Source: Phycisphaera mikurensis NBRC 102666 (GTDB lineage: Bacteria > Planctomycetota > Phycisphaerae > Phycisphaerales > Phycisphaeraceae). Taken from it: a stretch of DNA of 32,000 nt. The notes under the pieces are model-generated. The model worked only from the letters and a program-made list of their open reading frames with translations, ran no database searches and was not told the DNA's origin. Numbering within the stretch: the stretch's first letter is position 1; each line of letters begins with the position of its first letter. Both the position numbers and the translations under genes were made by a program. Shown piece after piece: positions 1,117 to 27,396 of this stretch. The stretch is from NCBI RefSeq assembly GCF_000284115.1, contig NC_017080.1:3510001-3542000 (forward strand). The letters are read 5' to 3'.

Positions 1117-1938
1117 GTGGGTGCGGTTGCCGTCGCCTTCGCCGGGAAAGCCAACCGCCCCGCCGCCGAAGCCCTGGCCGCGAGGCTGGGCCTCCCGATC
1201 GCCAAGAAGTTCCGCGATCCGCACCCGCTGCACCTGGCGTACGGGCCCGACGGCCGCCTGGGCCTCCGCGTCGTCGCCGCCGGCCACCCGCTCGCCGGCG
1301 GCCACCCCGTCGCCGCCGACCTGCTCGCGGTCGACACCTCCAGCCCCGCCGGCCGCAAGCTCGCCACGCCCTTCTTCAAGGCCATGGGCGTGCGGCGCGG
1401 CGAGCCGGCGCGCCCCCGGGTCCTCGACGCGACCGCCGGCCTCGGCGAGGACGCCTGGCTGCTCGCCAGCGCCGGCTGCCGCGTGACCGCTCTGGAGCGG
1501 AACCCCGTCGTCCTCGCCCTGCTCCAAGACGCCCTGGCCCGCGCCGCGGACCGCGAGCCCGAAACGGCCGAACGCCTCACGGTCCGCGGCGCCGAGGCCC
1601 TCGACGCGCTTCTGGCCCTGGCCGCCGGCCCCGAGGCGGACCGACCCGACGTCGTTGCGCTGGATCCCATGTTCCCGCTCGGCCGCCGCGCCACCGAACG
1701 CAAGCCGATGCGGGTGCTCCGCATGCTCGAGGAGGCCGCCGCCGACCGGGCTGGCTCCGCCGACGACGAGCCCGCCCTGCTCGCCGCCGCCCGCGCCGCC
1801 GCCCGCCGCCGCGTCGCCGTCAAACGCCCCGGCAAGGCCCCTCCGCTCGCCGGGCAAGAGCCCGACGTCGTGTTCCCCGGCAGAGCCGTCCGCCACGACG
1901 TCTACCTCACGCCCGCGGAGACGCCGCGAGCCGGCTGA
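1117..1938 (+). CDS. rsmJ: 16S rRNA (guanine1516-N2)-methyltransferase RsmJ-like SAM-dependent methyltransferase
   Basis: C-terminal part of track ORF 346..1938. GTG at 1117 lies 2 nt after the upstream stop. Motifs VLDATAGLGEDAWLLASAGCRVTALERNP, LDPMFP and VAVKRP match the RsmJ (DUF548) family. Confidence 0.8.
   Translation: MGAVAVAFAGKANRPAAEALAARLGLPIAKKFRDPHPLHLAYGPDGRLGLRVVAAGHPLAGGHPVAADLLAVDTSSPAGRKLATPFFKAMGVRRGEPARPRVLDATAGLGEDAWLLASAGCRVTALERNPVVLALLQDALARAADREPETAERLTVRGAEALDALLALAAGPEADRPDVVALDPMFPLGRRATERKPMRVLRMLEEAAADRAGSADDEPALLAAARAAARRRVAVKRPGKAPPLAGQEPDVVFPGRAVRHDVYLTPAETPRAG
1544..1589. repeat. 46-bp inverted-repeat element, copy 1 (CCGCGGACCG-N26-CGGTCCGCGG), inside the rsmJ CDS
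   Basis: Both 10-bp arms are exact (1544..1553 and 1580..1589). The arms are read in frame as A-D-R and V-R-G. Confidence 0.9.
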
Positions 1939-1976
1939 GCGGCGGGCACCGGCGGTTCCCCCGGACGGGCGGCGGC

Positions 1977-2942
1977 TCAGCCGCCGGTTTCGACCGGGTA
2001 GCGCTCGTCGTTGAGCCACTCCTGCATGCTGCCGTCGTAGACGGCGACCCGCTCGGCGCCTTCCTCGCGGAGCAGGAGGTACGGCAGCGAGACGCGGGTG
2101 GCGGACTGGCAGTAGAGGACGACGGTCTTGCCGGCGAGGTCGGCGGGGGCGACGCCGGCGGCGTCGCGCTCGCTCGCGACGTGGTCGGCGGGCTTGACGC
2201 GGTTCTCGGCGTCCAGCAGCGCCGCGTAGTCGAGGTGCTTGGCGCCGGCGAGGTGGCCGCCGCGCGCGTTCTTCCGCCGGTCGACGCCGGTGAACTCGTC
2301 GGTGGAGCGGGTGTCCCAGAGCACCACGCCGGGGTCGCCGGCGGCCGCGGCGACCTCCCGGGCCGTCCAGATCGCGCCCTCCCGCGGCCGCGCCTGGTAG
2401 GTCTTCGCGGCGGGCGCGGCGGGCGTGCCGAACGCGAGCTCGTGGCCGGCGGCGGTCCAGCGGTCGACGCCGACGCCGTCGAGGAAGCGGAGGTCGCCGC
2501 GGTGCCCGAGCAGGTCGAGGATCATGAGCACGGTCGAGCCGTCGGCCTGGCCGGCGTGGTTGCCGTACGCGATGACGGTGTCGTCGGCGGAGATGCCGGC
2601 AGCCCCCAGCAGCTCGGCGTAGCGCTCGGCGTCGATGCGCCGCTCCTCCGGGCCGGCGCCGCCGAGGCGGAAGAGCAGGTTCTTGCCGCGGGGGTCGTCG
2701 CCGGTGCTGCGCAGGGCGGCCGGCGGGAGGTTCACCGCCCCGGGCAGGTGCCCGGCGGCGAAGGCCTCGGGATCGCGCGCGTCGACGAGCACGACGCCGG
2801 GGCGGGCGGCGAGCGCCGCCACCTCCTCCACGGCCAGGAAGGTCTCGTGGCGCTGCGACCACGGGGCGTCGGGCGTCGAGGAGCACGCCGCGAGCAGCAA
2901 GCCGCACGCGAGGAGGGCGAAGGAGGCGGAGCGGGCGATCAT
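1977..2942 (-). CDS. Rhodanese-domain sulfurtransferase (tandem rhodanese, thiosulfate/3-mercaptopyruvate type), probable lipoprotein
   Basis: Internal ATG at 2942 gives MIARSASFALLACGLLLAACSS, a signal peptide with a lipobox Cys. Two rhodanese-like halves are present, with an active-site loop YCQSATR near the C-terminus. Confidence 0.8.
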   Translation of the reverse strand: MIARSASFALLACGLLLAACSSTPDAPWSQRHETFLAVEEVAALAARPGVVLVDARDPEAFAAGHLPGAVNLPPAALRSTGDDPRGKNLLFRLGGAGPEERRIDAERYAELLGAAGISADDTVIAYGNHAGQADGSTVLMILDLLGHRGDLRFLDGVGVDRWTAAGHELAFGTPAAPAAKTYQARPREGAIWTAREVAAAAGDPGVVLWDTRSTDEFTGVDRRKNARGGHLAGAKHLDYAALLDAENRVKPADHVASERDAAGVAPADLAGKTVVLYCQSATRVSLPYLLLREEGAERVAVYDGSMQEWLNDERYPVETGG

Positions 2943-2985
2943 GGGGGAAACGTAGCGGGCGCGGCCCGTGCCCCGCCCGGCGGCG

Positions 2986-4089
2986 TCAGCGCGCGGCCTG
3001 GCCCGCCGAGCGTTCCCGGAGCAGCTCGAGCCGGTCACGGACCTCGTCGGCCATCTTGGTGTTCGGGAAGTCGCGGATAATCTCCTCGCCGACGGTGAGC
3101 GCGTGGCCCCACTCCTGGTCGTGCACCGCCATCTCGAACTGCACCCGCAGGTTCTCCCGCTGCTTGCCGATGACCTCGCGGGCGACGTCCTGGATCCGCA
3201 AGCCCTCCTCGTGCGAGAACTCGCGGTCGATCTGCTCGAGCAGCTTCATGGCCCGCGGCGTGTCCTCCCGCGCCGCCGCCGCGCGGAACTCGCGCTCGAG
3301 CTCGTGCTTGTGACGGCCCTTCGCGGCGGCCACCATCGTGTCGATGTGGGCGACGCTCTGGACCGTGGGGAACAGCCGCTTGATGCGGGCCGCCTGCATC
3401 GCCGCCCGGTCGAGCTCGTCGCGTTCGAGCATCGCGTCGAGCCGGCTGACCTCGTGGCCGACCCGCACCTGGATCTCCTTGTCGCGCGCGGCCTCGATGC
3501 GCTCCCGGAACTTCTCCGCCTCCTCCAGGCGGCCGTACGTCTCGCTCATCAGCTCGAGCAGCACCATCGCGGCGTCGAAGTCCTTCCGGGCGAGGTCCGC
3601 CTCGATCGTCTCCCGCAGCAGCCGGATGTCCTCGACGCGGTAGGCGACACGCTTCGCCGTCTCCGACACGAGCATCCGCTCGCTGATCTGCTTGAGCAGG
3701 GCCCGGTCGCTCGCCGCGGCGGCGGTCTTGAGTCCTTCCCCGTGGGCCCCCGCGATCGCCCAGCGGACGCTGCCGATGACGAAGGCGGCGAAAGCGGCGA
3801 GCGTCAGCAGCGTGGACGGCGCGAAGAAGAGGTACGTGAGCACGACGGACTCGTCCTGCGTCGCGTCGGCCGCGTCCGCCGCCGCCTCCACCGCGAGCAG
3901 CGCCCCCAGCGCCGCGGCGCAGGCGAGCACCCAGAGGCCGGCCGACACGAGCACCCACTTCCAGGGCGCAAGGCCCGACCCCTGCTCCTCCACCGCCTCC
4001 CCGCCGACCGCCGCGTGCGGCCGGGCGGGCGTGTCGACGGAGTCCCGGGGGGCGGAAACGGCTGGGTCGGCGGCGGGGGCGGCGGTCAC
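2986..4089 (-). CDS. Hypothetical membrane-anchored coiled-coil protein
   Basis: GTG at 4089 is preceded by AGGAG with 6 nt spacing. Two hydrophobic segments (WKWVLVSAGLWVLACAAALGALLAV; VVLTYLFFAPSTLLTLAAFAAFVIG) are followed by a long charged E/R/A-rich helical region. I recognise no family. Confidence 0.6.
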   Translation of the reverse strand: MTAAPAADPAVSAPRDSVDTPARPHAAVGGEAVEEQGSGLAPWKWVLVSAGLWVLACAAALGALLAVEAAADAADATQDESVVLTYLFFAPSTLLTLAAFAAFVIGSVRWAIAGAHGEGLKTAAAASDRALLKQISERMLVSETAKRVAYRVEDIRLLRETIEADLARKDFDAAMVLLELMSETYGRLEEAEKFRERIEAARDKEIQVRVGHEVSRLDAMLERDELDRAAMQAARIKRLFPTVQSVAHIDTMVAAAKGRHKHELEREFRAAAAREDTPRAMKLLEQIDREFSHEEGLRIQDVAREVIGKQRENLRVQFEMAVHDQEWGHALTVGEEIIRDFPNTKMADEVRDRLELLRERSAGQAAR

Positions 4090-4286
4090 GGGGGACTCCT
4101 GGAGAGGGAAGGGAAGCGCCGGAGAAGGTGGACCGGGCCGAACCCAATCGTACCCGGAGGCGGCCGCTTTCCGCCCGCCAAAGACCCGACGCGGGCCGCA
4201 GCCGCGGGCCAAGCGGCGGAGCGATCGCGCGGGACTTTCGCATGGCGCCTGGCGACCCGGACCGCCGCCAAGCGGCCGCGGCCCCG

Positions 4287-5747
4287 CTACCGCGTGTACT
4301 TGTTCCCGGCCTTGCTCAGCCGCTTGTGCACGTACAGCGCCTCGAGCACGAACTCGCCGGCGCTGGCGATCGCCTGGTCGTCCTCGGGGTCCATGCCCAG
4401 CCGCTCGGCCATGTCGACCGCGGCGGGCAGCAGCCCGTCGACGTGCTTCATCGACGCGATCTGCTCGGCGGCGGAGACCTCGTCCCCGACGCTGAGCTTC
4501 AGGCCGCTCTCGAAGGCCTCCGCCACGTTCTCGAACTCGTCCACCTCGGCAACGGTGTCGAACACGCTCTTGACGGCTTCGCCCAGCAGCGACTCCACGA
4601 GCTTGTCCTCGGTGGCGTCGCCGTCGTCGCTCATCATCAGCTCGATCTTTCCGCGGGTGGCGGTCGTCAGGTGCATGAGATCGCAGACCCGCGGGACGAC
4701 GCGCTGCTCCCCGGTGAGGATGCCACGCCGCTCCGCGGAGGAGACCAGCGTCTCGAGGCAGGCGATGGAGGTGCGGACCGAGACGCCGCTGGCCTGGTTG
4801 ATGTGGCTGGATCCGCGGGCCTGGGCGATCGTCACCTCGAGGGTGCGGCGGAGGTACTCGGGCACGTCGATGGCGGGCACGCCGGCGGTGAGCGACTCGG
4901 CGCCGGGCTCGTCCCGGCGCGAGATCCACGCGTTCTCGGCGGTGATCCGCGCGGCCTCGTCGATGCCGCGGGGGTAGTGCGTGCGGACGACGCTGCCGAT
5001 CCGGTCCTTCAGGGGCGTGACGATGCGGCCGCGGTTGGTGTAGTCCTCGGGGTTGGCCGAGAACACGAGGCAGACGTCGAGGTTGAGCCGCACGGGGTAG
5101 CCGCGGATCTGGACGTCGCGCTCCTCGAGCACGTTGAAGAGGCCGACCTGGATCCGCGGCGACAGGTCGGGCAGCTCGTTGACGGCGAAGATGCCGCGGT
5201 TGGAGCGCGGGATCAGGCCGAAGTGCATCGTCGACTCGTCGCTGAGTTCGCGGCCCTGGGCGTACTTGACGATGTCGATCTCGCCGATCAGGTCGGCGAT
5301 GGTGACGTCGGGCGTGGCGAGCTTCTCGGAGTACCGCTCGCTGCGGTGCATCCAGCGGATCGGCGTTTCGTCGCCCCGCTCGGCGACGATGCGCCTCGCG
5401 GCGCCGGTCATCGGCTGGATCGGGTCGTCGGGCACGTCGGTGCCGGCGACGACGGGGCACCACGCGTCGAGCAGCTTGGGCAGCTGGCGGATCATCCGCG
5501 TCTTGGCCTGGCCACGCAGACCCAGGAAGAGCATGTCGTGCCGGCTGAAGATCGCGTGGACGACCTGGGGGACGACGGTGTCGTCGTAGCCGCGGACGCC
5601 CGGGAACACCGGGCCGCCGTCCTTCAGGCGGGCGATGAGGTTCTCGCGGAGCTCCTGCTTGACGGTGCGGACGCGGTGGCCGTGCTCTTTGAGCCGGCCG
5701 AGGGTGGCGACGTCGGGAGCGGAGGAAGAGGGCGTTTCGGCGGGCAT
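4287..5747 (-). CDS. AAA+ ATPase, Mg-chelatase ChlI/MoxR-like
   Basis: Start taken at MPAETPSS (ATG 5747). Contains MLFLGLRGQAKT (Walker A-like), GIFAVNELPDL (Walker B-like) and LNLDVCLVFSANPEDYTNRGRIVTPLKDR, typical of ChlI-type AAA+ proteins. Confidence 0.75.
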   Translation of the reverse strand: MPAETPSSSAPDVATLGRLKEHGHRVRTVKQELRENLIARLKDGGPVFPGVRGYDDTVVPQVVHAIFSRHDMLFLGLRGQAKTRMIRQLPKLLDAWCPVVAGTDVPDDPIQPMTGAARRIVAERGDETPIRWMHRSERYSEKLATPDVTIADLIGEIDIVKYAQGRELSDESTMHFGLIPRSNRGIFAVNELPDLSPRIQVGLFNVLEERDVQIRGYPVRLNLDVCLVFSANPEDYTNRGRIVTPLKDRIGSVVRTHYPRGIDEAARITAENAWISRRDEPGAESLTAGVPAIDVPEYLRRTLEVTIAQARGSSHINQASGVSVRTSIACLETLVSSAERRGILTGEQRVVPRVCDLMHLTTATRGKIELMMSDDGDATEDKLVESLLGEAVKSVFDTVAEVDEFENVAEAFESGLKLSVGDEVSAAEQIASMKHVDGLLPAAVDMAERLGMDPEDDQAIASAGEFVLEALYVHKRLSKAGNKYTR

Positions 5748-5790
5748 GGGCGAGGCTAGGCGTGGCCGGAAAACCCGCTTGGGGGAAGCT

Positions 5791-6813
5791 TCAACGGGTG
5801 CCACCGCCCGCGAGGAGCCCGCTGAGCACCGAGGCCGCGGGCTTGGGCGAGCCGTCGAACCCGTAGACGCCGAAGTGGTAGGCGTGCTCGTCGGCGTGGT
5901 CGCCCTCGATGCTCGCCCGGCCGGGGTCGAGGTCGTCGAGGCCGTACCAGTAGACGCGCGGGCTCGGGGCCGCGGCAGCGGCCTCGAGCGCGGCGGACTG
6001 CGCGGCGAGGGCGCCCGGCGTCCCGGCCCGGCCGGCCGCGGCGTCCCAGGTCGACAGCCCCGTCTCGGTCACCCACACGGCGCGGCCGCCGGCCACCTCC
6101 TCGAAGGCGGCGATCCGGTCGGCCCAGCCGCTCCACCGCCAGGGCTGGTCCCAGCCGTCGGCGGGCAGCTCGCCCGCGGCGGCTCGCTCGCTGCCCCCGG
6201 CGTCGTCGACGAAGTGCTCGCCCCACATGTGCGGGAAGCCGTGCACGCCGACGATGGGGACGTGCTCGAGGTGGCCCCGCTCGCGGAGCAGGGTGATGAA
6301 GGTCGGGTCGGCGGGGGCGAGGCCGCCGAGCACGGCCGGCTTGCCCGCGGAGGCCGCGACCGCGGCGGCCCCGTGGATCATCTCCCCGAAGAGGTGCCAC
6401 TGCGGGTCGGACCCGAGGAAGTCCCAGTAGAAGCGGCCGTTGGGCTCGTTCCAGAGCTCGATCTCGTGGAAGCGGTCGCCGTGCAGGTCGATGATCTGGC
6501 CGATGAAGGCGGCGTAATCGCGGAGGTCGTGCGGCGGGCCGCTGCACGCCCCGTTCCGCGAAATCGACGGCGGCGTGTGCCACACCGAGGGCAGCAGCTC
6601 GAACTCCTGGAGCTCCTCGAACAGGAAGGAAACGAAGGCCGGGCCGTCGGGCCGATGGAAGTCGGCCCACGAGACGCCGGTTCGCAGCCGGGCGACGCCC
6701 AGGCCGCGGAGGCGGTCGCGGGCGGCGAGGACGTGCTCGTGGTCGTTGTGGTGGAACCACTCGCAGACGCCGAGGCGCTGCGTGTAGGACGCGGGGTTGG
6801 GAGGCTGGCTCAT
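5791..6813 (-). CDS. Glycoside hydrolase, TIM-barrel clan GH-A (GH39/GH5-like)
   Basis: MSQPPNP start at 6813. The ELWNEPN acid/base motif and a later VWVTETG nucleophile-type motif are present. Its ATG overlaps the upstream gene's TGA (ATGA at 6813..6810). Confidence 0.6.
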   Translation of the reverse strand: MSQPPNPASYTQRLGVCEWFHHNDHEHVLAARDRLRGLGVARLRTGVSWADFHRPDGPAFVSFLFEELQEFELLPSVWHTPPSISRNGACSGPPHDLRDYAAFIGQIIDLHGDRFHEIELWNEPNGRFYWDFLGSDPQWHLFGEMIHGAAAVAASAGKPAVLGGLAPADPTFITLLRERGHLEHVPIVGVHGFPHMWGEHFVDDAGGSERAAAGELPADGWDQPWRWSGWADRIAAFEEVAGGRAVWVTETGLSTWDAAAGRAGTPGALAAQSAALEAAAAAPSPRVYWYGLDDLDPGRASIEGDHADEHAYHFGVYGFDGSPKPAASVLSGLLAGGGTR

Positions 6814-7961
6814 GGGAGGATCTTCGCGGCCGCGGATCCGGGCGGATGCCGCAGGGGCCGGTTCTGGGAGGGCTCCAGCGCCCGTCCGACGGCGGCGGCG
6901 ACCGGGCCGACGGGGACGGCGTCGACGCAGCTGCGGAGGCCCGCGATCCGGCACACGCCCTCCACCACGCACGCGGGCGGGCCGAGGCGGTCGGGTTCTC
7001 GCAGCGGGCACGGCGTCGTCGATTCCAGGGCCTCGCCCGCGAAGCGGCCGCCCCGCTCCACCCGCGGCATGTAGAGCTTCGCCCGCGTGGGGCCGAACAC
7101 CGCGACCGTTGGCGTCCCGACCGCCGCGGCGAGGTGCAGCAGGCCCGAGTCGTTGGTGAGCAGCGCGGTGCAGCGGGCGAGCACCGCCGCGGCCGTCAGC
7201 AGGTGCGCCGGGCCGAGCGCGGGGAGCGGCTCCGGGAGCCGGCGCTGCACGGCCGCCGCCCGCTCCGCGTCCGGCCCGGCGATCAGGACCGCGTCGGTGC
7301 CCGCCGGCCGGCCGATCAGCACCTCCGCCACGCGCTGCGGCGGCCAGACCTTCAGGTCGCTCCCGCCGTTCACGGCCGCGGCGAGCAGTGGACGGCGGCC
7401 GCGCGGCAGGCCGAGGGCCCCCAGCCACGCCTCCGCCGCCCGGGCGTGCGGCGGCGGCGGCTCGACGCTCGCCACGGCCTCGGGGGGAGCCGACAGCCCC
7501 CACCCCGCCGCCGCCGCGTCGCTGACGAAGGCCGCCGTGCCCGCCCCGCCCACCGCGGCCGCCAGCTCCACCGGCTGGTCCTCCTGCGCGTTCGCGTCGC
7601 CGAAGCCCGCCGCCACCGCCGCGTCGCGCAGCCCCTCGGGCGCGTGCATCAGCCCGACGAAGCGGGTCGCGTCGTCGAGTGCCGCCGCCCAAGCGGCCGA
7701 CTTCTCCCGGGCCGCGTCGTCGCCCCGGTCTCCCCAGTGCCGCAGGCCCAGCTGGAGGTAGGTCCCCACCGCGTCCTCCGGCCGCGCCAGCACCTCCACC
7801 AGGTCGACCGCCGGCCGCGTCGCCAGCCAGAGCACCGGCGTCCGCTGCTCCGCCCGCCAGGCCCGCAACGCCGGCACCGACATCACCACGTCGCCGAACC
7901 CGCAGCGCAGGCACATGACGCGGCGGAAGGTCGAGGGGAGCGGATCGTCGTCGCGGGGCAC
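6810..7961 (-). CDS. Glycosyltransferase family 9 (heptosyltransferase-like)
   Basis: N-terminal CGFGDVVMSVPAL and C-terminal LLTNDSGLLHLAAAVGTPTVAVFGPT are GT9 hallmarks. The start is GTG 7961 or ATG 7916 (uncertain). Confidence 0.75.
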   Translation of the reverse strand: MPRDDDPLPSTFRRVMCLRCGFGDVVMSVPALRAWRAEQRTPVLWLATRPAVDLVEVLARPEDAVGTYLQLGLRHWGDRGDDAAREKSAAWAAALDDATRFVGLMHAPEGLRDAAVAAGFGDANAQEDQPVELAAAVGGAGTAAFVSDAAAAGWGLSAPPEAVASVEPPPPHARAAEAWLGALGLPRGRRPLLAAAVNGGSDLKVWPPQRVAEVLIGRPAGTDAVLIAGPDAERAAAVQRRLPEPLPALGPAHLLTAAAVLARCTALLTNDSGLLHLAAAVGTPTVAVFGPTRAKLYMPRVERGGRFAGEALESTTPCPLREPDRLGPPACVVEGVCRIAGLRSCVDAVPVGPVAAAVGRALEPSQNRPLRHPPGSAAAKILP

Positions 7962-7993: not shown

Positions 7994-8039
7994 CCGCGGA
8001 CCGCCGCGCCGAACGCCCGCGACGCTCCGCGGTCCGCGG
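7994..8039. repeat. 46-bp inverted-repeat element, copy 2
   Basis: Arms are exact at 7994..8003 and 8030..8039. It is intergenic, 106 bp downstream of the thiC stop and 33 bp upstream of the GT9 start. Confidence 0.9.
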
Positions 8040-8144: not shown

Positions 8145-10043
8145 TCAGATGACCGAGTCGGCTTTCGAGAGCCCGTGCGCCTCGCTGGTGTCGAGCTGGA
8201 CCAACCGGTCGCCGTTGGCGAGGGCGGCCGCCTCCTTCGGCGCCACGCTCTTCGCCGCTTCGTCGTCCCCGACGTGGTCGCTGTGGCAGCGCGCCCGGCC
8301 GTCCTCGTCCGCGGGCACCAGCTTGCCCTTGGCCTTCGCCGCGAGCTTGTGGATCTCCGCCGGCGAGAGGTTGCCGCGCTGCTCGAGGATCCGCCGCTGC
8401 TCCTCGTTGAGCGCGGCGCTCTTCACCGTCCGCCCGCGGTCGAAGCCCTCGGCGAGGCCCGAGTCCCACTCGGAGATCTCCTTGCTGATGCGGACGCTGC
8501 ACCAGTCGTGGCCGCACATCGCGCAGAAGTCGGTGTCCACGTCGAGGTCCTCGTCGTGGTACGCCCGGGCCAGGTCCGGGTCGAAGGACAGGTCGAAGTG
8601 TTTCTGCCAGTTGAGGGCCGCCCGGGCCTTGGTCAGCTCGTCGTCGTTGTCCCGGGTGCCGGGGATCCCCAGCGCCACGTCGGCGGCGTGAGCCGCGATC
8701 TTGTACGCCACGCAGCCCTGCTTCACGTCGTCCTTCTTGGGCAGGCCCAGGTGCTCCTTGGGCGTGACGTAGCACAGCATCGACGCCCCGTGGTAGCCGG
8801 CCGAGGTCGCCCCGATGCAGCTGGTGATGTGGTCGTAGCCGGGGAACATGTCGGTCACCAGGGGCCCGAGCACGTAGAAGGGCGCCCCGTGGCAGAGGTG
8901 CCGCTGGGCCTTCATGTTGAACTCGATCTGGTCCAGCGGCACGTGGCCGGGGCCCTCGACCATCACCTGCACGCCGCAGCGCCAGGCACGCTCGGTCAGC
9001 TTGCCCAGCTCGACCAGCTCGGCCAGCTGCAGCTCGTCGGTGGCGTCGGCGAGGCCGCCGGGGCGGCAGCCGTCGCCGATGCTGAAGGTCACGTCGTGCT
9101 CGCGGAGGACCCCGCAGATCTTCTCCCACGACGTGTTCATCGGGTTCTCTCTCTGGTGGACCAGCATCCACTTCGCCAGCAGCGAGCCGCCGCGGGAGAC
9201 CAGGCCGATCAGCCGCTTCTTCACCAGCGGCAGGTGCGACTTGAGGATCCCGGCGTGGACCGTCATGTAGTCCACGCCCTGCTCGGCCTGGGCGCGGATG
9301 CCGTCGAGGATGATCTCCTCGTCGAGGTCTTCGATCTTCCGCCCGATGATCATCGAGTAGATCGGCACGGTGCCGATGGGCACCGTCGAGTGCGTCGTCA
9401 TCGCGACGCGGGTGGCGTCCAGGTCGCCGCCGGTGGAGAGGTCCATCACCGTGTCGGCGCCCCACTTCTCCGCCCAGCGGAGCTTGTCGACCTCCTCGTC
9501 GATCGAGGAGGAGACCGGGCTGGCGCCCATGTTCGCGTTGACCTTCGTCTTGCTGGCCCGGCCGATGGCCATCGGGTCCAGCGAGGTCTTCAGGTGGTTC
9601 TTGTTCGCCGGGATCACCATGCGGCCGGCGGCGACCTCGTCGCGGACCTGGGCCGCGCTGAGGTGCGGCTCCCGCTCGGCGACGCGCTCCATCTGCTTCG
9701 TGATCGTGCCGAGGCGCGCGTGCTCGAGCTGGGTCGACGCCTCGAAGCCGTCGGGGGCTCGCCACGAAGCGGCGTCGGCCCGGTTCGCCTCGTCGGTGCA
9801 CGTCCAGCCGGCGGGCATGAAGTCCCAGGCGGTCTTCTGCGGCAGCGGCGGCATCCCCGGCGTGTCGGGCGAGGAGAAGGTCGCCGCGCCCTCGGGGCCG
9901 GGGGCGATGGCCGGCCGGTTGGCGAAGGAGCCCGGCGTGGTGACGCCGGGCGTGTTCCCCGGGTTGCCGCCGACGGCGGGGAGCGTGTACGGGGCCGCGA
10001 CCAAGGCGGCGCGGGAGGTCGTGGGCGTGTCGTGGGGCTTCAT
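8145..10043 (-). CDS. thiC: Phosphomethylpyrimidine synthase ThiC
   Basis: 632-aa ORF with typical ThiC blocks (GTVPIYSMIIG, VDYMTVHAG, GPGHVPLDQI, GPLVTD) and the C-terminal CAMCGHDWCS Fe-S motif. A TPP riboswitch lies immediately upstream. Confidence 0.95.
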   Translation of the reverse strand: MKPHDTPTTSRAALVAAPYTLPAVGGNPGNTPGVTTPGSFANRPAIAPGPEGAATFSSPDTPGMPPLPQKTAWDFMPAGWTCTDEANRADAASWRAPDGFEASTQLEHARLGTITKQMERVAEREPHLSAAQVRDEVAAGRMVIPANKNHLKTSLDPMAIGRASKTKVNANMGASPVSSSIDEEVDKLRWAEKWGADTVMDLSTGGDLDATRVAMTTHSTVPIGTVPIYSMIIGRKIEDLDEEIILDGIRAQAEQGVDYMTVHAGILKSHLPLVKKRLIGLVSRGGSLLAKWMLVHQRENPMNTSWEKICGVLREHDVTFSIGDGCRPGGLADATDELQLAELVELGKLTERAWRCGVQVMVEGPGHVPLDQIEFNMKAQRHLCHGAPFYVLGPLVTDMFPGYDHITSCIGATSAGYHGASMLCYVTPKEHLGLPKKDDVKQGCVAYKIAAHAADVALGIPGTRDNDDELTKARAALNWQKHFDLSFDPDLARAYHDEDLDVDTDFCAMCGHDWCSVRISKEISEWDSGLAEGFDRGRTVKSAALNEEQRRILEQRGNLSPAEIHKLAAKAKGKLVPADEDGRARCHSDHVGDDEAAKSVAPKEAAALANGDRLVQLDTSEAHGLSKADSVI

Positions 10044-10111
10044 CGCGTGGGTCCTTGGGGGAGGCGCGGAGGAAGCGGGTGCGGGACGCGGCGGGTGGGC
10101 CGGTCCGGTTG

Positions 10112-10192
10112 TCGCCTTCCCTCCGCCGGTGTGATCCGGATCAGGTTCCGCGGGTGCTTCTCAGCCGGAGAGGTCCGACGCCCCGAGGCAGA
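10112..10192 (-). promoter_or_regulatory. TPP (THI-box) riboswitch in the thiC leader
   Basis: The minus strand reads CUCGGGGCGUCGGACCUCUCCGGCUGAGAAGCACCCGCGGAACCUGAUCCGGAUCACACCGGCGGAGGGAAGG. It contains the conserved CUGAGA and ACCUGAUC..GGAU...C.GGCG.AGGGA cores of the TPP aptamer, about 70 nt upstream of the thiC ATG. Confidence 0.9.
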
Positions 10193-10235
10193 AGAAAGCA
10201 TAGAGGCGGGCCCGGGCGGGTCGTACGCTGAACGC

Positions 10236-12384: not shown

Positions 12385-12430
12385 CCGCGGACCGCGGCCG
12401 ATCACGCTCGACCGAGCGGACGGTCCGCGG
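12385..12430. repeat. 46-bp inverted-repeat element, copy 3
   Basis: Arms are exact at 12385..12394 and 12421..12430. The left arm extends to the full 13-bp palindrome CCGCGGACCGCGG. It is intergenic, 93 bp downstream of the pyrE stop. Confidence 0.9.
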
Positions 12431-14474: not shown

Positions 14475-16358
14475 TCAGCCCAGCGACCGCAGCGCCGCCT
14501 TGCAGGCCTGCCCCAGCGGGACCGCCTCGCCGCGGGGGCCTAGGGAGCCGTCCCGCGCCACCAGCTCCACCGTCGGCGTGTCGGCGGAGAGGCCCTTGTC
14601 GCCGACGACGATCCGCAGCGGGAAGCCGATCAGGTCGGCGTCCTTGAACTTGGGCCCCGGCCGCCCGTCGCGGTCGTCGATGAGCACGTCGTGCCCGGCC
14701 TCCTCCAGGCTGGCCGCCAGGTTCCGGCAGACGTCGGCGACCTGGCTGTCGGGCTCCCACGCGATCGGCGTGATGACGACCGCGTAGGGCGCGAGCGCGA
14801 CGGGCCAGATGATGCCGTCGGCGTCGTGGCCGCTCTTCTTCTCCGCGGTCGAGCGGCCGGTGCTCTCGATGGCCGAGGCGAGCACGCGGTTGACGCCGAT
14901 GCCGTAGCAGCCCATGAGCGGTGTGACGGCCGCGCCGTCGGCCCCGGCCACGGCGATGCCCAGGGCCCGCGTGTACTTGGCCCCCAGCTTGAACACCTGG
15001 CCGACCTCGATGCCGCGCGAGGCCACGAGCGTGGGCCCGCCGTCGCCGGCGACCGCCCCGGGGGCGGGGTCGCCCGCGAGCGCGTTGCGGAGGTCCAGGA
15101 CGGCGAAGCGGTCGGCGGGGAGGTGGTCGGTGAGGTCGCGGCCCCAGTGGAAGTGCTTGGCGTGGGCGTCGGGCCGGTTGGCGCCGACGACCCAGAAGCC
15201 GCCGTGCGCCGCGTCGAAGTCGACGGCGACGGCGGTGTCGCCGCGGCCGGCCGCGGCGTGCGGGCCCACCGAGCCCAGCGGGAAGCCCGCGGCTTGGGCC
15301 TCCTCCTCGGGGGCGAGGCGCGCGAGCGCACCCGGGCCGTGGAAGCGCTCGGCGGCGGCCTTGAGCTTCTCGTCGTTGAGCTGGTGGTCGCCGCGGACCG
15401 CGACCAAAAGGAAGCGCAAACCGCCGCGGTCCGCGGAATCGGGCGGCTCGGCGTCCTCGGGCGGCTCCATCATGCAGACGAGCGTCTTGAGCGTGTTCTT
15501 CGCGGCGAGCTTCGAGCCCAGCTCCTTCTTGAAGAAGGCGGTGACCTCCTCGATGGAGCCCACGCCGGGCGTCTCCACCTCCTCCAGGCCGCCCGTCGGC
15601 TCCTGGGTGAGGTCGCTGGGCCGCTCGCCGGTCGCGGCCTTCTCCTCGTTGGCGGCGTACGCCCCGTCGGTGGAGCGGAAGACGGTGTCCTCGCCGGTCG
15701 GCGTGAGCACGGTGAACTGGTGGCTGGCCCGGCCGCCCATCTCGCCGGTCTCGGCCTCGACGACGGCGTAGTCGAGCCCGCACCGCTCGAAGATCCGCTC
15801 GTAGGCGGCGTACTGCGCCCGGTAGGTCTCGTCGAGCCCGCCCTCGCCGTCGGCGGTGGCGTGGAAGCTGTAGCCGTCCTTCATCAGGAACTCCCGCGAC
15901 CGCAGCACCCCGAAGCGCGGCCGGAACTCGTCGCGGAACTTGGTCTGGATCTGGTAGACGTTGCGGGGCAGGTCCTTGTAGGAGGACAGGGTCGCGCCCA
16001 CGAGGTCGGCCACGGCCTCCTCGGCGGTCGGCGCGAGCGCCGCCTCGCGGCCGTGGCGGTCGTTGACCACGAAGAGGTTCGCGCCGTACGCCGCGCGGCG
16101 GCCGGTGCGCTCCCACAGCGAGATCGGCTGCAGGCACGGCAGGCTGACTTCGACGGCTCCGGCGGCGTGCTGCTCCTCGCGGATGATCCGCTCCACCTTC
16201 CGCAGGCTCCGCAGCCCCAGCGGCAGGTAGCCGTACGAGCCCGAGCCGAGCCGGCGGACCAGCCCGGCCCGCAGCATCAGCCGGTGCGAGGGCACCTCGG
16301 CGTCGGCGGGGGCTTCGCGGAGGGTGGGGGCGAGGGTTCTCGACCAGAAGTCAGGCAT
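14475..16358 (-). CDS. proS: Proline--tRNA ligase (bacterial type with INS editing domain)
   Basis: Start at MPDFWSRTLAPTLREAP (ATG 16358). Class II motifs (FRDE.RPRFG..R.REF.MKD.YSF; GCYGIG..R) and the VRGDHQLNDEKL block are present. The upstream part of track ORF 14475..17804 is a GC artefact. Confidence 0.95.
   Translation of the reverse strand: MPDFWSRTLAPTLREAPADAEVPSHRLMLRAGLVRRLGSGSYGYLPLGLRSLRKVERIIREEQHAAGAVEVSLPCLQPISLWERTGRRAAYGANLFVVNDRHGREAALAPTAEEAVADLVGATLSSYKDLPRNVYQIQTKFRDEFRPRFGVLRSREFLMKDGYSFHATADGEGGLDETYRAQYAAYERIFERCGLDYAVVEAETGEMGGRASHQFTVLTPTGEDTVFRSTDGAYAANEEKAATGERPSDLTQEPTGGLEEVETPGVGSIEEVTAFFKKELGSKLAAKNTLKTLVCMMEPPEDAEPPDSADRGGLRFLLVAVRGDHQLNDEKLKAAAERFHGPGALARLAPEEEAQAAGFPLGSVGPHAAAGRGDTAVAVDFDAAHGGFWVVGANRPDAHAKHFHWGRDLTDHLPADRFAVLDLRNALAGDPAPGAVAGDGGPTLVASRGIEVGQVFKLGAKYTRALGIAVAGADGAAVTPLMGCYGIGVNRVLASAIESTGRSTAEKKSGHDADGIIWPVALAPYAVVITPIAWEPDSQVADVCRNLAASLEEAGHDVLIDDRDGRPGPKFKDADLIGFPLRIVVGDKGLSADTPTVELVARDGSLGPRGEAVPLGQACKAALRSLG
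15391..15436. repeat. 46-bp inverted-repeat element, copy 4, inside the proS CDS
   Basis: Arms are exact at 15391..15400 and 15427..15436. On the coding (minus) strand the arms read S-A-D-R-G and A-V-R-G-D. Confidence 0.9.
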
Positions 16359-17423: not shown

Positions 17424-17452
17424 GCCCCGCGGAGCCGGCCGCCGCCGCATAA

Positions 17453-17472
17453 GCAAGAGCAAGAGCAAGAGC
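17453..17472. repeat. Hexanucleotide repeat (GCAAGA)x3 plus a partial unit
   Basis: gcaagagcaagagcaagagc read directly. It abuts the left arm of 46-bp element copy 5. Confidence 0.8.
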
Positions 17473-17517
17473 CGCGGACCGGGGTCCCGCGCGTTCCTGG
17501 TCCGGCACGGTCCGCGG
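17472..17517. repeat. 46-bp inverted-repeat element, copy 5
   Basis: Arms are exact at 17472..17481 and 17508..17517. It lies 49 bp downstream of the amidase stop. Confidence 0.9.
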
Positions 17518-17869
17518 AGAGCGTTCCCGCTCGCGCGGCGGGTGGAGGCGGCGAGCCGGGTTTCAGCGTCGCGGCACCGCGAGCGCGCGGCGTCACGAGC
17601 GGTGGTGGGGCAAATCTGATGGCGTGGCTGAGCTTTGCGCTTGGCAGCCGCTGCGGAATGGTTACAGTGACCGCATCCATTGCCCGATGGTTTTCGGGCA
17701 CCCTTTGTGCCGCATCCCGACCTGGAAACCACTGCTTCGGCATGACGGATGTCCCGTGGTTTCGACAAAGGGCACGGCGACGTGCTGGAAGCGGGTGTAC
17801 GCACCCCGCCCCCTTCCGATCCGCCCCACCCGGTGGACCCGACGGAACCCCGGGACCTGAGCAGCGCCG

Positions 17870-18799
17870 ATGTCGAAGTTTCACCAGATCGCCGGGTACG
17901 ACGTCGTCGAGACGCTGGGCACCGGTGCCGGCAGCACGCTCTACGCCGTGCGGAACAAGAAGGGCGAGAAGTACTGCCTCAAGCGGGTGGTCAAGAAGAG
18001 CGAGCAGGACCAGCGCTTCATCGATCAGGCGCTGGCGGAGCACAAGATCGCCCACCAGTTCAAGCACCCGCGGCTCCGACGGAGCCTGAAGGTGCACAAG
18101 ATCCGCGAGCTGATCCGCGTGAGCGAGGTCGCGGTGATCATGGAGATGGTCGACGGCTGGACGCTGGAGGAGAAGCGCCCCGACGACGTCCTGCTGCTCT
18201 GCCGGGTCTTCCACGAGATCGCCGAGGCGCTCCTGGAGATGCACCGGCTCGGCTTTGCGCACGCCGACATCAAGCCCAACAACATCATGCTCACGGCCTC
18301 CGAGTCCGGAGACGGCTTCGTGGTGAAGATCATCGACTTCGGCCAGAGCTGCCCGCTGGGCACGATCAAGGAGCGGATCCAGGGGACGCCCGACTACATC
18401 GCTCCCGAGCAGGTCAAGCGCCGCGCCATCAACGAGCAGACCGACGTGTTCTGCCTCGGCGCGACGATGTACTGGCTGCTCACCGGCGTGAACGTGCCCA
18501 CGATGATGCCCAAGCGCAACCGCGACGCGGTGGCCATCAAGACCGAGGAGGCGAAGAAGTTCGAGCCTCCCGCGAAGCTCAACCCCAGCGTGAGCCCCGC
18601 CTTGTCGTCGCTGGTGATGGACTGCGTCGAGCGGCGGCCCGAAGACCGCCCCGCCGGGATGCCGGCCGTGATCAGCCGCCTCGACCTCGCGGTGCAGCAG
18701 ATCGAGCGTGCCCGCTCCAAGGGAGCGTCCGCCGCCCCGCTGCCCTCGCTGGAGAGCGGGCGGAAGCCCGGCTCGACGGAGTCCCTCGCGGGACGCTGA
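17870..18799 (+). CDS. Serine/threonine protein kinase, kinase domain only, non-RD type
   Basis: Gly-rich loop LGTGAGSTLY, Lys in YCLKRV, catalytic loop HADIKPNN, IIDFGQS, and GTPDYIAPEQ. Confidence 0.9.
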   Translation: MSKFHQIAGYDVVETLGTGAGSTLYAVRNKKGEKYCLKRVVKKSEQDQRFIDQALAEHKIAHQFKHPRLRRSLKVHKIRELIRVSEVAVIMEMVDGWTLEEKRPDDVLLLCRVFHEIAEALLEMHRLGFAHADIKPNNIMLTASESGDGFVVKIIDFGQSCPLGTIKERIQGTPDYIAPEQVKRRAINEQTDVFCLGATMYWLLTGVNVPTMMPKRNRDAVAIKTEEAKKFEPPAKLNPSVSPALSSLVMDCVERRPEDRPAGMPAVISRLDLAVQQIERARSKGASAAPLPSLESGRKPGSTESLAGR

Positions 18800-18977
18800 G
18801 CGTGGGGGGGCCACGTGGGGGGCCAAGATCAGCCCGGTGGAGCCGCGTGGAGCCCCCGCACGCCGCCCCGCGGGCGGGTGCCCCGTGCGGTCTTCTCGCG
18901 TGTAAGTCTCGACGGGACCGGGTGACGCGGCTCGCGACCGGCCCCGCCCCCGGGTGCCGCAGCCATAGGGTGCGGCC

Positions 18978-19952
18978 ATGCAGTTTGATCTTCTGGGCCG
19001 CACCGAACTCTCCGTCTCCCGCCTCGGCTTCGGCTCCGCGCCGGTCGGCTTCCTGGGCACCTCCCAGGGCCAGATCGACAAGGTCGTGGCGACGCTGCTC
19101 GAAGCCGGCGTCAACCTCTTCGACACCGCCGCCTGCTACCCCGGCAGCGAGGAGGCGTTGGGTCACGCGCTCGCGGGCCGTCGCGACGACGTGGTGATCG
19201 TGACCAAGGCCGGGCACCCCTGCGACGACGACGCCCACGGGCACCCGGCCTTCTCGCCGGAGCTGCTCGCCGCCAGCGTGGACCGCTCGCTGGAGCGGCT
19301 GAAGACCGATCACCTCGACGTCGTGCTGCTGCACACCTGCACCCTGGAGCAGCTGGAGGAGGGCTCGGCGTTGGGTGCCCTGCTCGATGCCCGCGATGCC
19401 GGGAAGACCCGCTTCGTGGGCTTTGCCGGCGACAACGAGGCCGCGGCCTTCGCCGCCGCCGACGCGGGGGTCGACGTGCTGGAGGTCTCGGTGAACCTGG
19501 CCGACCAGCACAACCTCGACGCCGTGCTGCCGGCCGCCCGGGAGCACCACAAGGGCGTGATCGCGAAGCGGCCGCTCGCCAACGCCTGCTGGAAGGACCG
19601 CGACGCCCAGCCGGGGATGTACAAGAGCTACGCCGACGCCTACAGCCGCCGGCTCGCGGCGATGGAGGCCGAGGGCCTCTCGCCCGCCGCCCTGGGACAC
19701 TCCGGTCACGTCGAGGTCGAGTGGCCCGACGTCGCCCTGCGATTCACGCTGGCCCACCCCGGCGTGAGCTCGGCGATCATCGGCTCGACCAGCACCGTGC
19801 ACACCGAGATGAACCTCGACGCCGCCCGCAAGAACCCGCTGCGGGAGGAGGCCGTCGAGCGGATCCGGGCGGCTTGGCAAGCGGCTCGCGCAGCACGGCG
19901 GGGCGCGGCGGCGGAGGACGACGAGGGCGACGACTGGAAGGGCCGGACCTGA
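18978..19952 (+). CDS. Aldo/keto reductase
   Basis: 324-aa ORF. LGFGSAPVG, NLFDTAACY, DVVLLH and IIGSTS blocks fit the AKR fold. Confidence 0.8.
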   Translation: MQFDLLGRTELSVSRLGFGSAPVGFLGTSQGQIDKVVATLLEAGVNLFDTAACYPGSEEALGHALAGRRDDVVIVTKAGHPCDDDAHGHPAFSPELLAASVDRSLERLKTDHLDVVLLHTCTLEQLEEGSALGALLDARDAGKTRFVGFAGDNEAAAFAAADAGVDVLEVSVNLADQHNLDAVLPAAREHHKGVIAKRPLANACWKDRDAQPGMYKSYADAYSRRLAAMEAEGLSPAALGHSGHVEVEWPDVALRFTLAHPGVSSAIIGSTSTVHTEMNLDAARKNPLREEAVERIRAAWQAARAARRGAAAEDDEGDDWKGRT

Positions 19953-20962
19953 GCCGGGCCACGCCTCCTCCCGCCGCGGCGAGCCTCCCGCCCTTCGTCT
20001 ACGACCCGGCGTACGTGACGCCGCTGCCGCCGGGGCACCGCTTCCCGATGCCGAAGTTCGGCCACCTGCACGACCACCTCGCGGCGGTCGGCCTGCTCGG
20101 CCCGGGCAACCTCCACCGGCCCGAGCCCGCGGCGGTCGAGACGCTCGGGCGGGCGCACGACCCGGCGTACGCCGATGCCTTCCTCTCCGGTCGGCTCGAC
20201 CGCGACGCGCTCCGCACGCTCGGCCTGCCGTGGTCCGCGGGCCTCGCGGCCCGGACGGTCACCGCCCTTGGCGGCACCGTGCTCGCCGCCCGCCTCGCGC
20301 TGCGGCACGGCCTCGCCGCCAATCTGGCCGGCGGCACGCACCACGCCCACCGCGGGCACGGGGCCGGCTTCTGCATCTTCAACGACCTCGCCGTCGCCGC
20401 GCTCACGCTGCTCGAGGAAGACGCCGTGGACCAGGTCCTCATCGTCGACCTCGACGTGCACCAGGGGGACGGCACCGCCCGGATCCTGCGCCACGAGCCG
20501 CGGGCGTTCACGCTCTCGGTGCACTGCGCCTCGAACTACCCCGCCCGCAAAGCCCGCAGCGACCTCGACGTCCCGCTGCCGGACGGGCTGGGCGACGCCG
20601 GGTACCTCCGCGTGCTCGGGCACGGCGACGAAGCCTCCGGCTTCCGCGGCCTCGGCTGGCTGCTGGAGCAGGTCGAGCCCGATCTCGTGCTCTACGACGC
20701 CGGGGTCGACGTGCACGCCGACGACAAGCTCGGCCGGCTCGCGATGACCGACGCCGGCCTCCGCGAGCGCGACCGCGCCGTGCTCGAAGCCTGCCGCGGG
20801 CAGGGCGTGCCGGTCGCGTGCGTCATCGGCGGCGGCTACGGCGACGACCGGGTGGCGCTGGCGCAGCGGCACGGCATCCTGCACGAAGAGGTCGCCCGGC
20901 GGTGGCGGGCGGAGCGGGCGCGGGACGCGTCGCGGACCGCGGCGGCCCGGAGCCTCCCGTGA
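19949..20962 (+). CDS. Histone deacetylase-family protein (HDAC/AcuC-like); start codon uncertain
   Basis: FVYDPAYVTPLPPGHRFPMPKF, GGTHHAHRGHGAGFCIFND, DLDVHQGDG and GGGY are class-defining motifs. There is no in-frame ATG/GTG upstream of the conserved N-terminus. The only candidate is CTG at 19949, which overlaps the upstream TGA. Confidence 0.8.
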   Translation: MSRATPPPAAASLPPFVYDPAYVTPLPPGHRFPMPKFGHLHDHLAAVGLLGPGNLHRPEPAAVETLGRAHDPAYADAFLSGRLDRDALRTLGLPWSAGLAARTVTALGGTVLAARLALRHGLAANLAGGTHHAHRGHGAGFCIFNDLAVAALTLLEEDAVDQVLIVDLDVHQGDGTARILRHEPRAFTLSVHCASNYPARKARSDLDVPLPDGLGDAGYLRVLGHGDEASGFRGLGWLLEQVEPDLVLYDAGVDVHADDKLGRLAMTDAGLRERDRAVLEACRGQGVPVACVIGGGYGDDRVALAQRHGILHEEVARRWRAERARDASRTAAARSLP

Positions 20963-20975
20963 CCGCGGTCCGCGG
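20930..20975. repeat. 46-bp inverted-repeat element, copy 6 (left arm TCGCGGACCG, one mismatch)
   Basis: Arms at 20930..20939 and 20966..20975. It straddles the HDAC stop codon (20960..20962) and ends 17 bp before the sufE ATG. Confidence 0.8.
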
Positions 20976-24002: not shown

Positions 24003-24048
24003 TCCGCGGACCGACGCCCGCTCCAGCCGAAAAACCCGGCGGTCCGCG
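24003..24048. repeat. 46-bp inverted-repeat element, copy 7
   Basis: Arms are exact at 24003..24012 and 24039..24048. It starts 13 bp after the neuB stop. Confidence 0.9.
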
Positions 24049-24127
24049 GGTAAACTCCGCCGCCGGCCGGCGTGTGCCCGGCCGCCTGATCCGCCCGCGT
24101 TCCGCAGCCTCCGCGACCCACTCCCCG

Positions 24128-24371: not shown

Positions 24372-24840
24372 GCTCATCCACCCCGTGGATGTCGCGGCGG
24401 ATGCGAGCGGCGGAGGTTGTCGGCCCGGCACGGGGCGCATGGTGCACGGGCTGTTGCTGCTCCGTGCAGCTTCTACATCGACGGAGTCGATGAGCCACCC
24501 GTGGAGGGGCGGACCGAAGCGGCGGAGGTTGTCGGCCCGGTGCGGGGCGCATGGCGCACGGGCTGTTTCTGGCCCGTTCAGCTTCTACATCGACGGAGTC
24601 GATGAGCCACCCGTGGAGGGGCGGACCGAAGCGGCGGAGGTTGTCGGCCCGGTGCGGGGCGCATGGCGCACGGGCTGTTTCTGGCCCGTTCAGCTTCTAC
24701 ATCGACGGAGTCGATGAGCCACCCGTGGAGGGGCGGACCGAAGCGGCGGAGGTTGTCGGCCCGGTGCGGGGCGCATGGCGCATGGGCTGGTTCTGCTCCG
24801 TGCAGCTTCTACATCGACGGAGTCGATGAGCCACCCGTGG
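24372..24840. repeat. Tandem array of a 112-bp unit, about 4.1 copies
   Basis: Units lie at about 24372..24491 (diverged), 24492..24603, 24604..24715 (identical to the previous unit), 24716..24827 (5 substitutions) and a partial unit at 24828..24840. Because 112 is not a multiple of 3, each copy is in a different frame. Confidence 0.95.
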
Positions 24841-27073: not shown

Positions 27074-27197
27074 CGGAATCAGGCGGGTGAGCGTGCCGGA
27101 ACCCCGAAGATAAAGGCGGACGGTTTGGACCACGCGAGCGTCGGCGGAGCCACCCCGAGCGAGCTTGGGGCACCCCGGACCGGCGGCAAAGGAAAGA

Positions 27198-27219
27198 GGC
27201 CCGCCGTTGCCGGCGGGCC
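27198..27219 (-). terminator. Intrinsic terminator-like hairpin downstream of tRNA-Asn
   Basis: GGCCCGCCG-TTGC-CGGCGGGCC (9-bp stem, 4-nt loop) is followed on the minus strand by TCTTTCCTTT. Confidence 0.6.
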
Positions 27220-27230
27220 TCGTCCTCATG

Positions 27231-27303
27231 CTCCCCGAGCTGGGCTCGAACCAGCGACCTAGCGATTAACAGTCGCGCGCTCTACCAACTGAGCTATCGG
27301 GGA
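27231..27303 (-). tRNA. tRNA-Asn (anticodon GTT)
   Basis: The minus strand reads TCCCCGATAGCTCAGTTGGTAGAGCGCGCGACTGTTAATCGCTAGGTCGCTGGTTCGAGCCCAGCTCGGGGAG. It has a 7-bp acceptor stem, D arm GCTC/GAGC, anticodon loop CTGTTAA and T loop TTCGAGC. CCA is not encoded. Confidence 0.95.
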
Positions 27304-27350
27304 AAGGCTTTGGCCGGAGAGTTTAGGGAGCCGAAGCCCCGCCCGCAAAT

Positions 27351-27396
27351 CCGCGGACGGCGGACCCGGAAGCGGCCCGGGGGCCGCGGTCCGCGG
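27351..27396. repeat. 46-bp inverted-repeat element, copy 8 (left arm CCGCGGACGG, one mismatch)
   Basis: Arms at 27351..27360 and 27387..27396. It ends 4 bp from the GH30 stop and lies 48 bp upstream of the tRNA-Asn 5' end. Confidence 0.8.

Follow-up and report, generated by a model that had tools for sequence, protein, structure and literature searches.

Background

A few bacterial genomes are sprinkled with an exact motif that was made in place. The uptake signal sequences (USS), the DNA uptake sequences (DUS), HIP1 and Chi are the cases in point, and each has brought to light either a machine that handles DNA or an evolutionary drive. Here we describe a 46-bp element of the marine planctomycete Phycisphaera mikurensis NBRC 102666, CCGCGGACCG-N26-CGGTCCGCGG, in which two inverted 10-bp arms enclose an interior of fixed length. 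It was noticed in a stretch of 32,000 nucleotides of the chromosome (NC_017080.1, positions 3,510,001 to 3,542,000; assembly GCF_000284115.1), which we call the window and whose coordinates are used throughout unless another locus is named. An earlier note on this window had described eight such loci and had offered three readings of them: a hairpin, a pair of protein-binding sites, or a target of modification. We suggest, with a probability of about 0.5, that it serves a putative reader protein as a dyad-symmetric recognition site in duplex DNA, specific to the clade and present genome-wide.

The hallmarks of USS and DUS are a strong consensus, enrichment in non-coding DNA, a codon-friendly reading frame, origin by substitution, even spacing and sharing among close relatives; in Pasteurellaceae, the USS core is accompanied by two A/T tracts about one helical turn apart (PMC1626085, PMC2817400). 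Both are organized around one asymmetric core of 9-12 bp, which works by itself in either orientation and occurs about once per kb, whereas the element of P. mikurensis is an obligatory inverted pair of 10-mers separated by exactly 26 bp, occurs about once per 4 kb, and has a planctomycete as its host.

HIP1 (GCGATCGC) of cyanobacteria is a selected palindrome with non-random spacing, for which a link to chromosome or nucleoid structure has been proposed (PMC5861425). Like the element described here, it is a palindromic motif that is kept both within and between genes and has no peptide or RNA-motif role. It differs in being a single palindrome of 8 bp, often present more than once per gene and tied to two methyltransferases, whereas our element is 46 bp long, bipartite and built around a structured spacer, and it occurs about ten times less often.

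Repeat families of other kinds show partial resemblance. The repetitive extragenic palindromic (REP) sequences and bacterial interspersed mosaic elements (BIMEs) associated with RAYT transposases, including the RIP and RIB elements that bear sites for integration host factor (IHF), possess an inverted G+C-rich pair, a bendable linker, a position at 3' gene ends and the potential to form hairpins. However, they are extragenic, conserved over their whole length and clustered around the RAYT gene, whereas in our case the interior is degenerate, 4 of 13 copies lie in genes and the origin is in place. Integron attC sites likewise combine conserved inverted ends with a variable centre and lie at gene 3' ends, but they carry RYYYAAC/GTTRRRY boxes, vary from 57 to 141 bp and are found in one orientation in cassette arrays beside intI; the present element has a fixed length, another arm sequence and syntenic housekeeping neighbours on both strands. 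Rickettsia palindromic elements (RPE) are palindromic repeats that reside in frame inside protein-coding genes, but they are insertions of 100-150 bp that add a peptide segment, and our alignments show no insertion of a unit. As the single short core that defines USS, DUS and HIP1 is absent, the element is not a member of any of these. By its evolutionary behaviour, it would nevertheless be a motif of the kind that they represent.

Copies, arms and spacer

The window was searched for CCGCGGACCG-N26-CGGTCCGCGG with up to two mismatches, and the chance level was taken from dinucleotide shuffles. Exactly eight matches were found against 0.01 expected, in agreement with the earlier supposition that arm pairs would exceed shuffled controls; clade-specific over-representation of several hundred-fold is also characteristic of USS and DUS. 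Six copies have exact arms; the left arm deviates in copy 6 (T at position 1) and in copy 8 (G at position 9). All eight loci of the earlier note were recovered, with the correction that the seventh lies at 24004-24049 and not at 24003-24048. Its observations that every exact 10-mer arm in the window belongs to a pair, and that five 13-bp palindromes formed around arms are complete, proved accurate. When arm pairs with gaps of 0-120 and up to three mismatches were scanned, only the gap of 26 was enriched and no decayed copies were detected in the window. Alignment of the 100-nt flanks of the window copies revealed nothing conserved outside the arms.

The window, with 73% G+C and ordinary housekeeping genes, corresponds base for base to NCBI assembly GCA_014207395.1, except for one 112-bp tandem-repeat unit, and is identical to the Logan assembly of SRR12223476. 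The ProRS and RsmJ-like proteins that it encodes show 100% identity to P. mikurensis proteins. The identical elements in both assemblies rule out a synthetic or planted feature. The deviating unit belongs to a tandem repeat at 24406-24840 (3.9 copies, 96% identity), located between a 74-aa open reading frame and araA, which is one unit shorter in the public draft assembly.

By joining flanks around the window genes, we assembled 51.5 kb of contiguous P. mikurensis chromosome. It contains 13 copies, ten of them exact and three with one mismatch, and only two orphan arms, about the number expected by chance. All figures for P. mikurensis rest on these 51.5 kb of a 3.8-Mb genome. Statistics on the sequence of the element are based on a pool of 71-81 non-redundant copies. 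They derive from P. mikurensis, from four loci of close relatives and from 53 metagenome contigs, some 35 of these contigs belonging to one marine assembly. Gene calls were those supplied with the loci, supplemented by calls based on third-codon-position G+C.

The arms are invariant in sequence among the pooled copies, and in none of the eight known single-arm variants does the opposite arm carry a compensating change. The distance between arm centres is constant at 36 bp. In 129 kb of clade DNA, the 26-bp spacing yielded 19, 7, 1 and 1 copies with 0, 1, 2 and 3 mismatches, respectively; such a preponderance of perfect over singly mismatched copies is shared with USS and DUS. Among 20 other spacings in the same DNA, the sole perfect copy has 27 bp and comes from a long-read assembly in which its host gene is frameshifted. 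This sharp peak and the strict 26-bp spacer of the 28 clade copies bear out what had been proposed before, namely a constant interior length and selection on geometry. In unrelated high-GC genomes, among the matches listed, the arm pair occurs once per locus and the gap lengths are distributed flatly, with no preference for 26 bp.

The interior had been regarded as free, unrelated sequence. This view has to be given up: interior positions 7-10 and 17-20 are 46-58% A/T, compared to 14-21% elsewhere, and the enrichment is found in each of three independent sets (Fisher p = 2e-9, 7e-13 and 7e-26). In addition, positions 1-3 are biased to Y-S-G and positions 24-26 to C-S-R. The information content of the interior is 0.1-0.7 bit per position. 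The resulting layout is symmetric, arm-6-W4-6-W4-6-arm, with the two tracts 10 bp apart, and it takes the place of the 33-bp distance between palindrome centres that had been considered important. Tracts about one helical turn apart are a further likeness to uptake sequences. Of 71 copies, 19 have the T-then-A (dyad-symmetric) arrangement of tracts, 4 have A-then-T and 28 have both tracts on the same strand. In 4 copies the sense strand is the A-rich one, and in 6 it is the T-rich one. In our reading of these counts, the tracts have no link to the transcribed strand, and we rejected an asymmetry of RNA orientation on the same grounds. Outside the element, gaAT often stands beside an arm in the pooled copies.

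Coding copies and their homologues

Copy 1 (1544-1589, exact arms) is situated inside an rsmJ-like gene for an S-adenosylmethionine-dependent methyltransferase (1117-1938, plus strand), where it encodes AADREPETAERLTVRG in phase 1. Nine aligned homologues are equal in length across the 16 codons of the element, with no indel. At this site the clade has AADREPETAERLTVRG, and relatives at 55-62% identity have AAEAQPEIATRIELLH or similar. In nucleotide sequence, P. mikurensis and two relatives (loci L183 and L184) have exact arms, while an outgroup at 62% identity has 16 unrelated codons that differ at many positions, non-synonymous ones included. Six third-codon positions within the arms are unchanged in both comparisons among the three lineages, whereas 25% and 32% of synonymous sites outside the arms differ. 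The conservation of the arms (P = 0.017) resembles that of HIP1 sites, which are conserved beyond neutral expectation.

Copy 4 (15391-15436, exact arms) lies inside proS (14475-16358, minus strand) and encodes SADRGGLRFLLVAVRG, again in phase 1. Its right arm coincides with conserved A/V-V-R-G codons of prolyl-tRNA synthetase (ProRS) and its left arm with a variable loop. The proS gene of an 89%-identical relative is four codons (12 nt) shorter and has no left arm; the left arm arose via an indel of 2-4 codons. The closest relative (L125) possesses both arms, its ProRS being 92% identical over the alignable half (the gene is frameshifted). In the interior, P. mikurensis has the rare codons CTT TTG in place of the CTG CTC of the 89%-identical relative. 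The same tendency is seen in coding copies generally: GAA, GGT, GGA, CTT and TTG occur at tract positions, and codons ending in A or T make up 10 of 36 (28%) in the interiors against 3.75% in genes (p = 6e-7).

Equal length of the rsmJ homologues and a difference of merely 12 nt in proS mean that the unit was not inserted but built on native sequence. In these alignments, the coding copies formed by substitutions together with a small indel, without any 46-bp insertion, and installation of the motif costs amino-acid and codon changes even in essential genes. The comparison of orthologous loci thus sustains the earlier opinion that we are not dealing with a copy-and-paste element, the coding arms of both rsmJ and proS having arisen in place. 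Coding copies of USS and DUS originate in the same manner, by substitution in place, in a frame that uses preferred codons and at poorly conserved residues.

Placement along the chromosome

Four of the 13 copies are fully inside genes (at the C-terminus of an ABC ATPase, in the rsmJ-like gene, in proS and in the linker of a Na+/H+ exchanger), two overlap a gene end and seven are intergenic. Six copies thus touch coding DNA in a region that is 89% coding (P = 1e-4), which amounts to intergenic enrichment, and eight of the nine non-coding copies are located at most about 105 nt from the 3' end of a gene. Copies in genes are found in either orientation. All coding copies (n = 8 independent ones, including four from metagenomes) are in phase 1, xCC GCG GAC CGN ... 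NCG GTC CGC GGx, which is the phase that uses G/C-ending codons.

Neighbouring copies are 2.1-6.5 kb apart, about one per 4 kb, with a coefficient of variation (CV) of 0.33. Random placement gives a CV of 0.93 (P about 1e-4), and a random choice among gene boundaries gives 0.79 (P = 6e-4). Spacing more even than random is another property in which the element agrees with USS and DUS.

The remaining copies in the window are non-coding. Copy 2 (7994-8039, exact arms) lies in the intergenic gap between two minus-strand genes: the 3' end of thiC is 105 nt away on one side, and a glycosyltransferase-9 gene starts 32 nt away on the other. Upstream of thiC itself (8145-10043, minus strand), a TPP (thiamine pyrophosphate) riboswitch is present at 10101-10195 on the same strand (Rfam RF00059, 66.4 bits). 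Copy 3 (12385-12430, exact arms) is again intergenic between two minus-strand genes, where 92 nt separate it from the 3' end of a phosphoribosyltransferase-like gene and 16 nt from the start of an EVE-domain gene. Copy 5 (17472-17517, exact arms) occupies the intergenic region between an amidase_2 gene, whose stop on the plus strand is 48 nt away, and a Ser/Thr kinase gene that begins 352 nt further on; an (AGCAAG)n microsatellite at 17452-17471 directly adjoins its left arm. Copy 6 (20930-20975, left arm TCGCGGACCG) overlaps the stop of a histone-deacetylase-family gene (20960-20962) and ends 16 nt before sufE. Copy 7 (24004-24049, exact arms), also intergenic, follows the stop of neuB (plus strand) at a distance of 13 nt. 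Copy 8 (27351-27396, left arm CCGCGGACGG) is intergenic as well, 3 nt past the stop of a gene for a hypothetical protein of 564 aa (minus strand), the 5' end of tRNA-Asn being 47 nt away.

Between copy 5 and the kinase gene (17870-18799), we observed a further non-coding block at about 17655-17770 (plus strand). Its conservation extends to relatives L123 and L125 and, in part, to the distant L126. It contains a conserved hairpin (GCCCGrYGGTT..CGGGC) with a few compensatory pairs and has no Rfam match. It may represent an undescribed leader or small RNA.

Distribution among relatives

The element is present in metagenome-assembled relatives with at least 87% ProRS or at least 72% RsmJ identity, at 2-6 copies per 20 kb. 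It was not found in a 22-kb locus of a relative with 65% ProRS identity, nor in a 21-kb locus of one with 62% RsmJ identity. On the sequences compared, it is confined to the P. mikurensis clade. We also considered that more distant relatives might carry an analogous motif with other arms, but no other iterated inverted repeat was seen in the distant-relative loci L126 and L185, and this candidate was dropped. In the literature, we found no description of the 10-mer in such a role, nor of palindromic repeats of P. mikurensis. Viral contigs were searched as well; the element was not found in them, which has no bearing either way on its interpretation as an uptake signal.

Intergenic copies turn over between relatives. 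The intergenic region of copy 5, for example, holds an element in L123 and L124 but none in L125. L123 and L124 are 99.7% identical, and their differences include tight clusters of 8-17 substitutions (L123 5443-5640, 6708-6752 and 9324-9345). One of the clusters is centred on an element, of which 11 of 26 interior positions differ. We considered a hypervariable interior and rejected it, as the two other, similar clusters are away from elements and a second shared element is identical in both strains. The clusters could be short recombination patches or template-switch events.

One relative, L183, contains a REPtron (ENA ERZ25039505 contig_12979, 13590-14860), the only place in the fetched loci where a Y1_Tnp (PF01797) gene was encountered. 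The gene (14062-14718) is flanked by at least ten GTAC-headed REPs (GTACCCGCCTGCGGCCCGCAGGCG). These copies of GTACCCGCCTGCGGCCCGCAGGCGAAGCG are conserved over their full length, clustered, and unrelated to the 46-bp element. The REPtron sits in a 7.3-kb island between rsmJ and a rhodanese gene; the island itself is free of the 46-bp element, the nearest copies being 3.6 and 5.6 kb away from the transposase gene. Within the fetched loci, a RAYT link was rejected, the Y1 transposase of L183 being flanked by a different REP.

Other repeats were encountered in passing. A second palindrome family, AAGGAGCT-N2-AGCTCCTT, has four copies (L123 7104-7170 and 18242-18310) and, like simple repeats of CACAGAGG, occurs in relatives and not in P. 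mikurensis. Finally, an exact match to the 46-bp element is present at L135 1488-1533 in a metagenome contig of 39% G+C (Ga0081606_1028139). Chance is negligible here; a chimeric contig and an unrelated carrier are both possibilities.

Discussion

Our starting points are the motif, its fixed geometry and structured spacer, its origin in place, its even spacing and its restriction to one clade. In the model we favour, two inverted 10-bp half-sites (CCGCGGACCG) are kept exactly 26 bp apart, and a putative dimeric or otherwise two-headed sequence-specific protein would touch both arms, while the spacer would bend or kink at the A/T tracts, one helical turn from each other. Phased A/T tracts make the minor groove narrower and bending easier, and proteins of the IHF/HU type fold DNA through two kinks about 9-10 bp apart. 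It is from these two properties that we infer a two-headed reader on a bent spacer. The sites would be created and kept in place by a directional force, roughly one per 4 kb and without transposition. Such a force might be selection on a chromosome-level function, for instance the marking or organising of DNA, or molecular drive of the uptake-sequence type, and it would have to be strong enough to alter amino acids and to override codon usage.

Of the readings listed in the earlier note, the one with two protein half-sites fits best, given the invariant arms, the lack of compensation in eight out of eight variants, the tracts one helical turn apart and their independence of the transcribed strand; only its emphasis on palindrome centres at 33 bp does not survive. 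Nevertheless, several points weigh against the duplex-site model. The reader protein is putative, and its binding to duplex DNA as well as its role are deduced from sequence. The 10-bp inverted repeat also folds as a stable hairpin (-22 to -34 kcal/mol), and together with the position of most non-coding copies beside 3' gene ends this makes a single-strand or RNA function possible. The genome-wide density and evenness are extrapolations from 51.5 kb. On fragmentary contigs of relatives (L144, L149 and L164), two copies can be as close as 130-525 bp, and the even spacing may thus be specific to the P. mikurensis lineage or to this region. As for the version that relies on drive, the best 120 of 243 matches to the ComEC of a relative included none from P. 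mikurensis, though this is a weak test.

If the element acts as a hairpin of single-stranded DNA or RNA, with a 10-bp G+C stem and a 26-nt loop, it could be read by a hairpin-specific protein or function as a REP-like stabiliser or processing signal at 3' ends. All eight window copies indeed fold into the arm stem (z-scores -1.2 to -4.4), the T-then-A tracts permit extra pairing in the 19 copies that have them, and Y1 transposases, which read hairpins, exist in the clade. The preference of non-coding copies for gene 3' ends also suits such a function. We consider it unlikely, however. It is the arm sequence itself that stays invariant, beyond what pairing requires, and single-arm variants are left uncompensated. 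Copies inside genes occur in either orientation, the tracts are not tied to the sense strand, and it is hard to see what a fixed length of 26 nt and tracts 10 nt apart would mean for a loop. On inspection of the sequences, no T-run follows the stem in any copy, which together with the 26-nt loop excludes an intrinsic terminator. The element corresponds to no Rfam family, tRNA-Asn and the TPP riboswitch being the only ones that reach the gathering score in the window, and the sole RAYT-like gene found is flanked by a different REP. Folding and location agree with the hairpin reading of the earlier note, and the invariance of the arms speaks against it.

A special case of duplex-site reading is an uptake or self-recognition signal, on which a machinery for DNA uptake or recombination would preferentially act and which would accumulate by molecular drive. 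The element has nearly all the descriptive hallmarks of USS and DUS: the excess of perfect copies over mismatched ones, non-coding enrichment with coding copies in a codon-compatible frame, origin by substitution and not by insertion, a core accompanied by a pair of A/T tracts about one helical turn apart, an evenness of spacing beyond random placement, and sharing among close relatives only. The 7.3-kb island inserted in L183 lacks the motif, and one patch of L123/L124 differences is centred on an element. Still, we hold this explanation to be quite improbable. The uptake sequences known so far consist of one asymmetric core that is sufficient by itself, whereas only inverted pairs at exactly 26 bp are found here. 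To the ComEC result given above can be added the gene order: in the distant L126, comEC lies beside the kinase gene (4965-7526), while in the syntenic slot of the window (17870-19952) and of close relatives there is an aldo/keto reductase gene. Two other clusters of L123/L124 differences are not at elements. Moreover, we know of no report of natural transformation in planctomycetes.

A decayed family of REPs or miniature inverted-repeat transposable elements (MITEs), spread by insertion, with terminal repeats kept by a transposase and the interior left to drift, would account for the weak interior consensus, for the gaAT that often adjoins an arm and for the enrichment of copies between genes. 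The flanking AT is self-complementary, so that it cannot identify a target-site duplication. We find this origin very hard to reconcile with the remaining data: there is no 46-bp indel at coding copies (none at all in rsmJ, and a 12-nt difference at one arm in proS), the interiors of genic copies code for native protein, the intact copies are not accompanied by a tail of decayed ones, and spacing is even. Nor is any transposase linked to the motif in the fetched loci, and the REPtron of L183 uses another sequence.

A restriction-modification or methylation target, the third reading of the earlier note, deserves hardly any credence: each arm does nest a SacII-type CCGCGG and an RsrII-type CGGWCCG palindrome, and the cyanobacterial HIP1 is tied to methyltransferases (PMC4390886), but CCGCGG occurs 189 times in 46 kb, the 26 arm copies being a small minority, CGGWCCG is at chance frequency (30 against 26.9 expected), and neither palindrome explains the 26-bp spacer or the A/T tracts.

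Returning to the duplex-site model, it is tempting to speculate further on what the element is for. Tentatively, it might be a docking site of a dedicated two-headed protein that marks the chromosome or partitions it into units of about 4 kb, as a bacterial equivalent of phased architectural or insulator sites, or else it might be the first bipartite self-recognition or uptake signal outside Proteobacteria. Either way, a genome-wide force would be rewriting housekeeping genes.

Taken together, the motif would add a further case to the small group formed by USS, DUS, HIP1 and Chi, in a different phylum and with a new architecture, an obligatory inverted pair around a structured spacer of fixed length with phased A/T tracts, 46 bp in total. 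The length and exactness of the site should make a reader protein easy to capture with a 46-bp probe, and the cost of the motif in protein sequence and codon usage is directly measurable. The element bears on the question whether selection or drive maintains such motifs, and on the organisation of planctomycete chromosomes.

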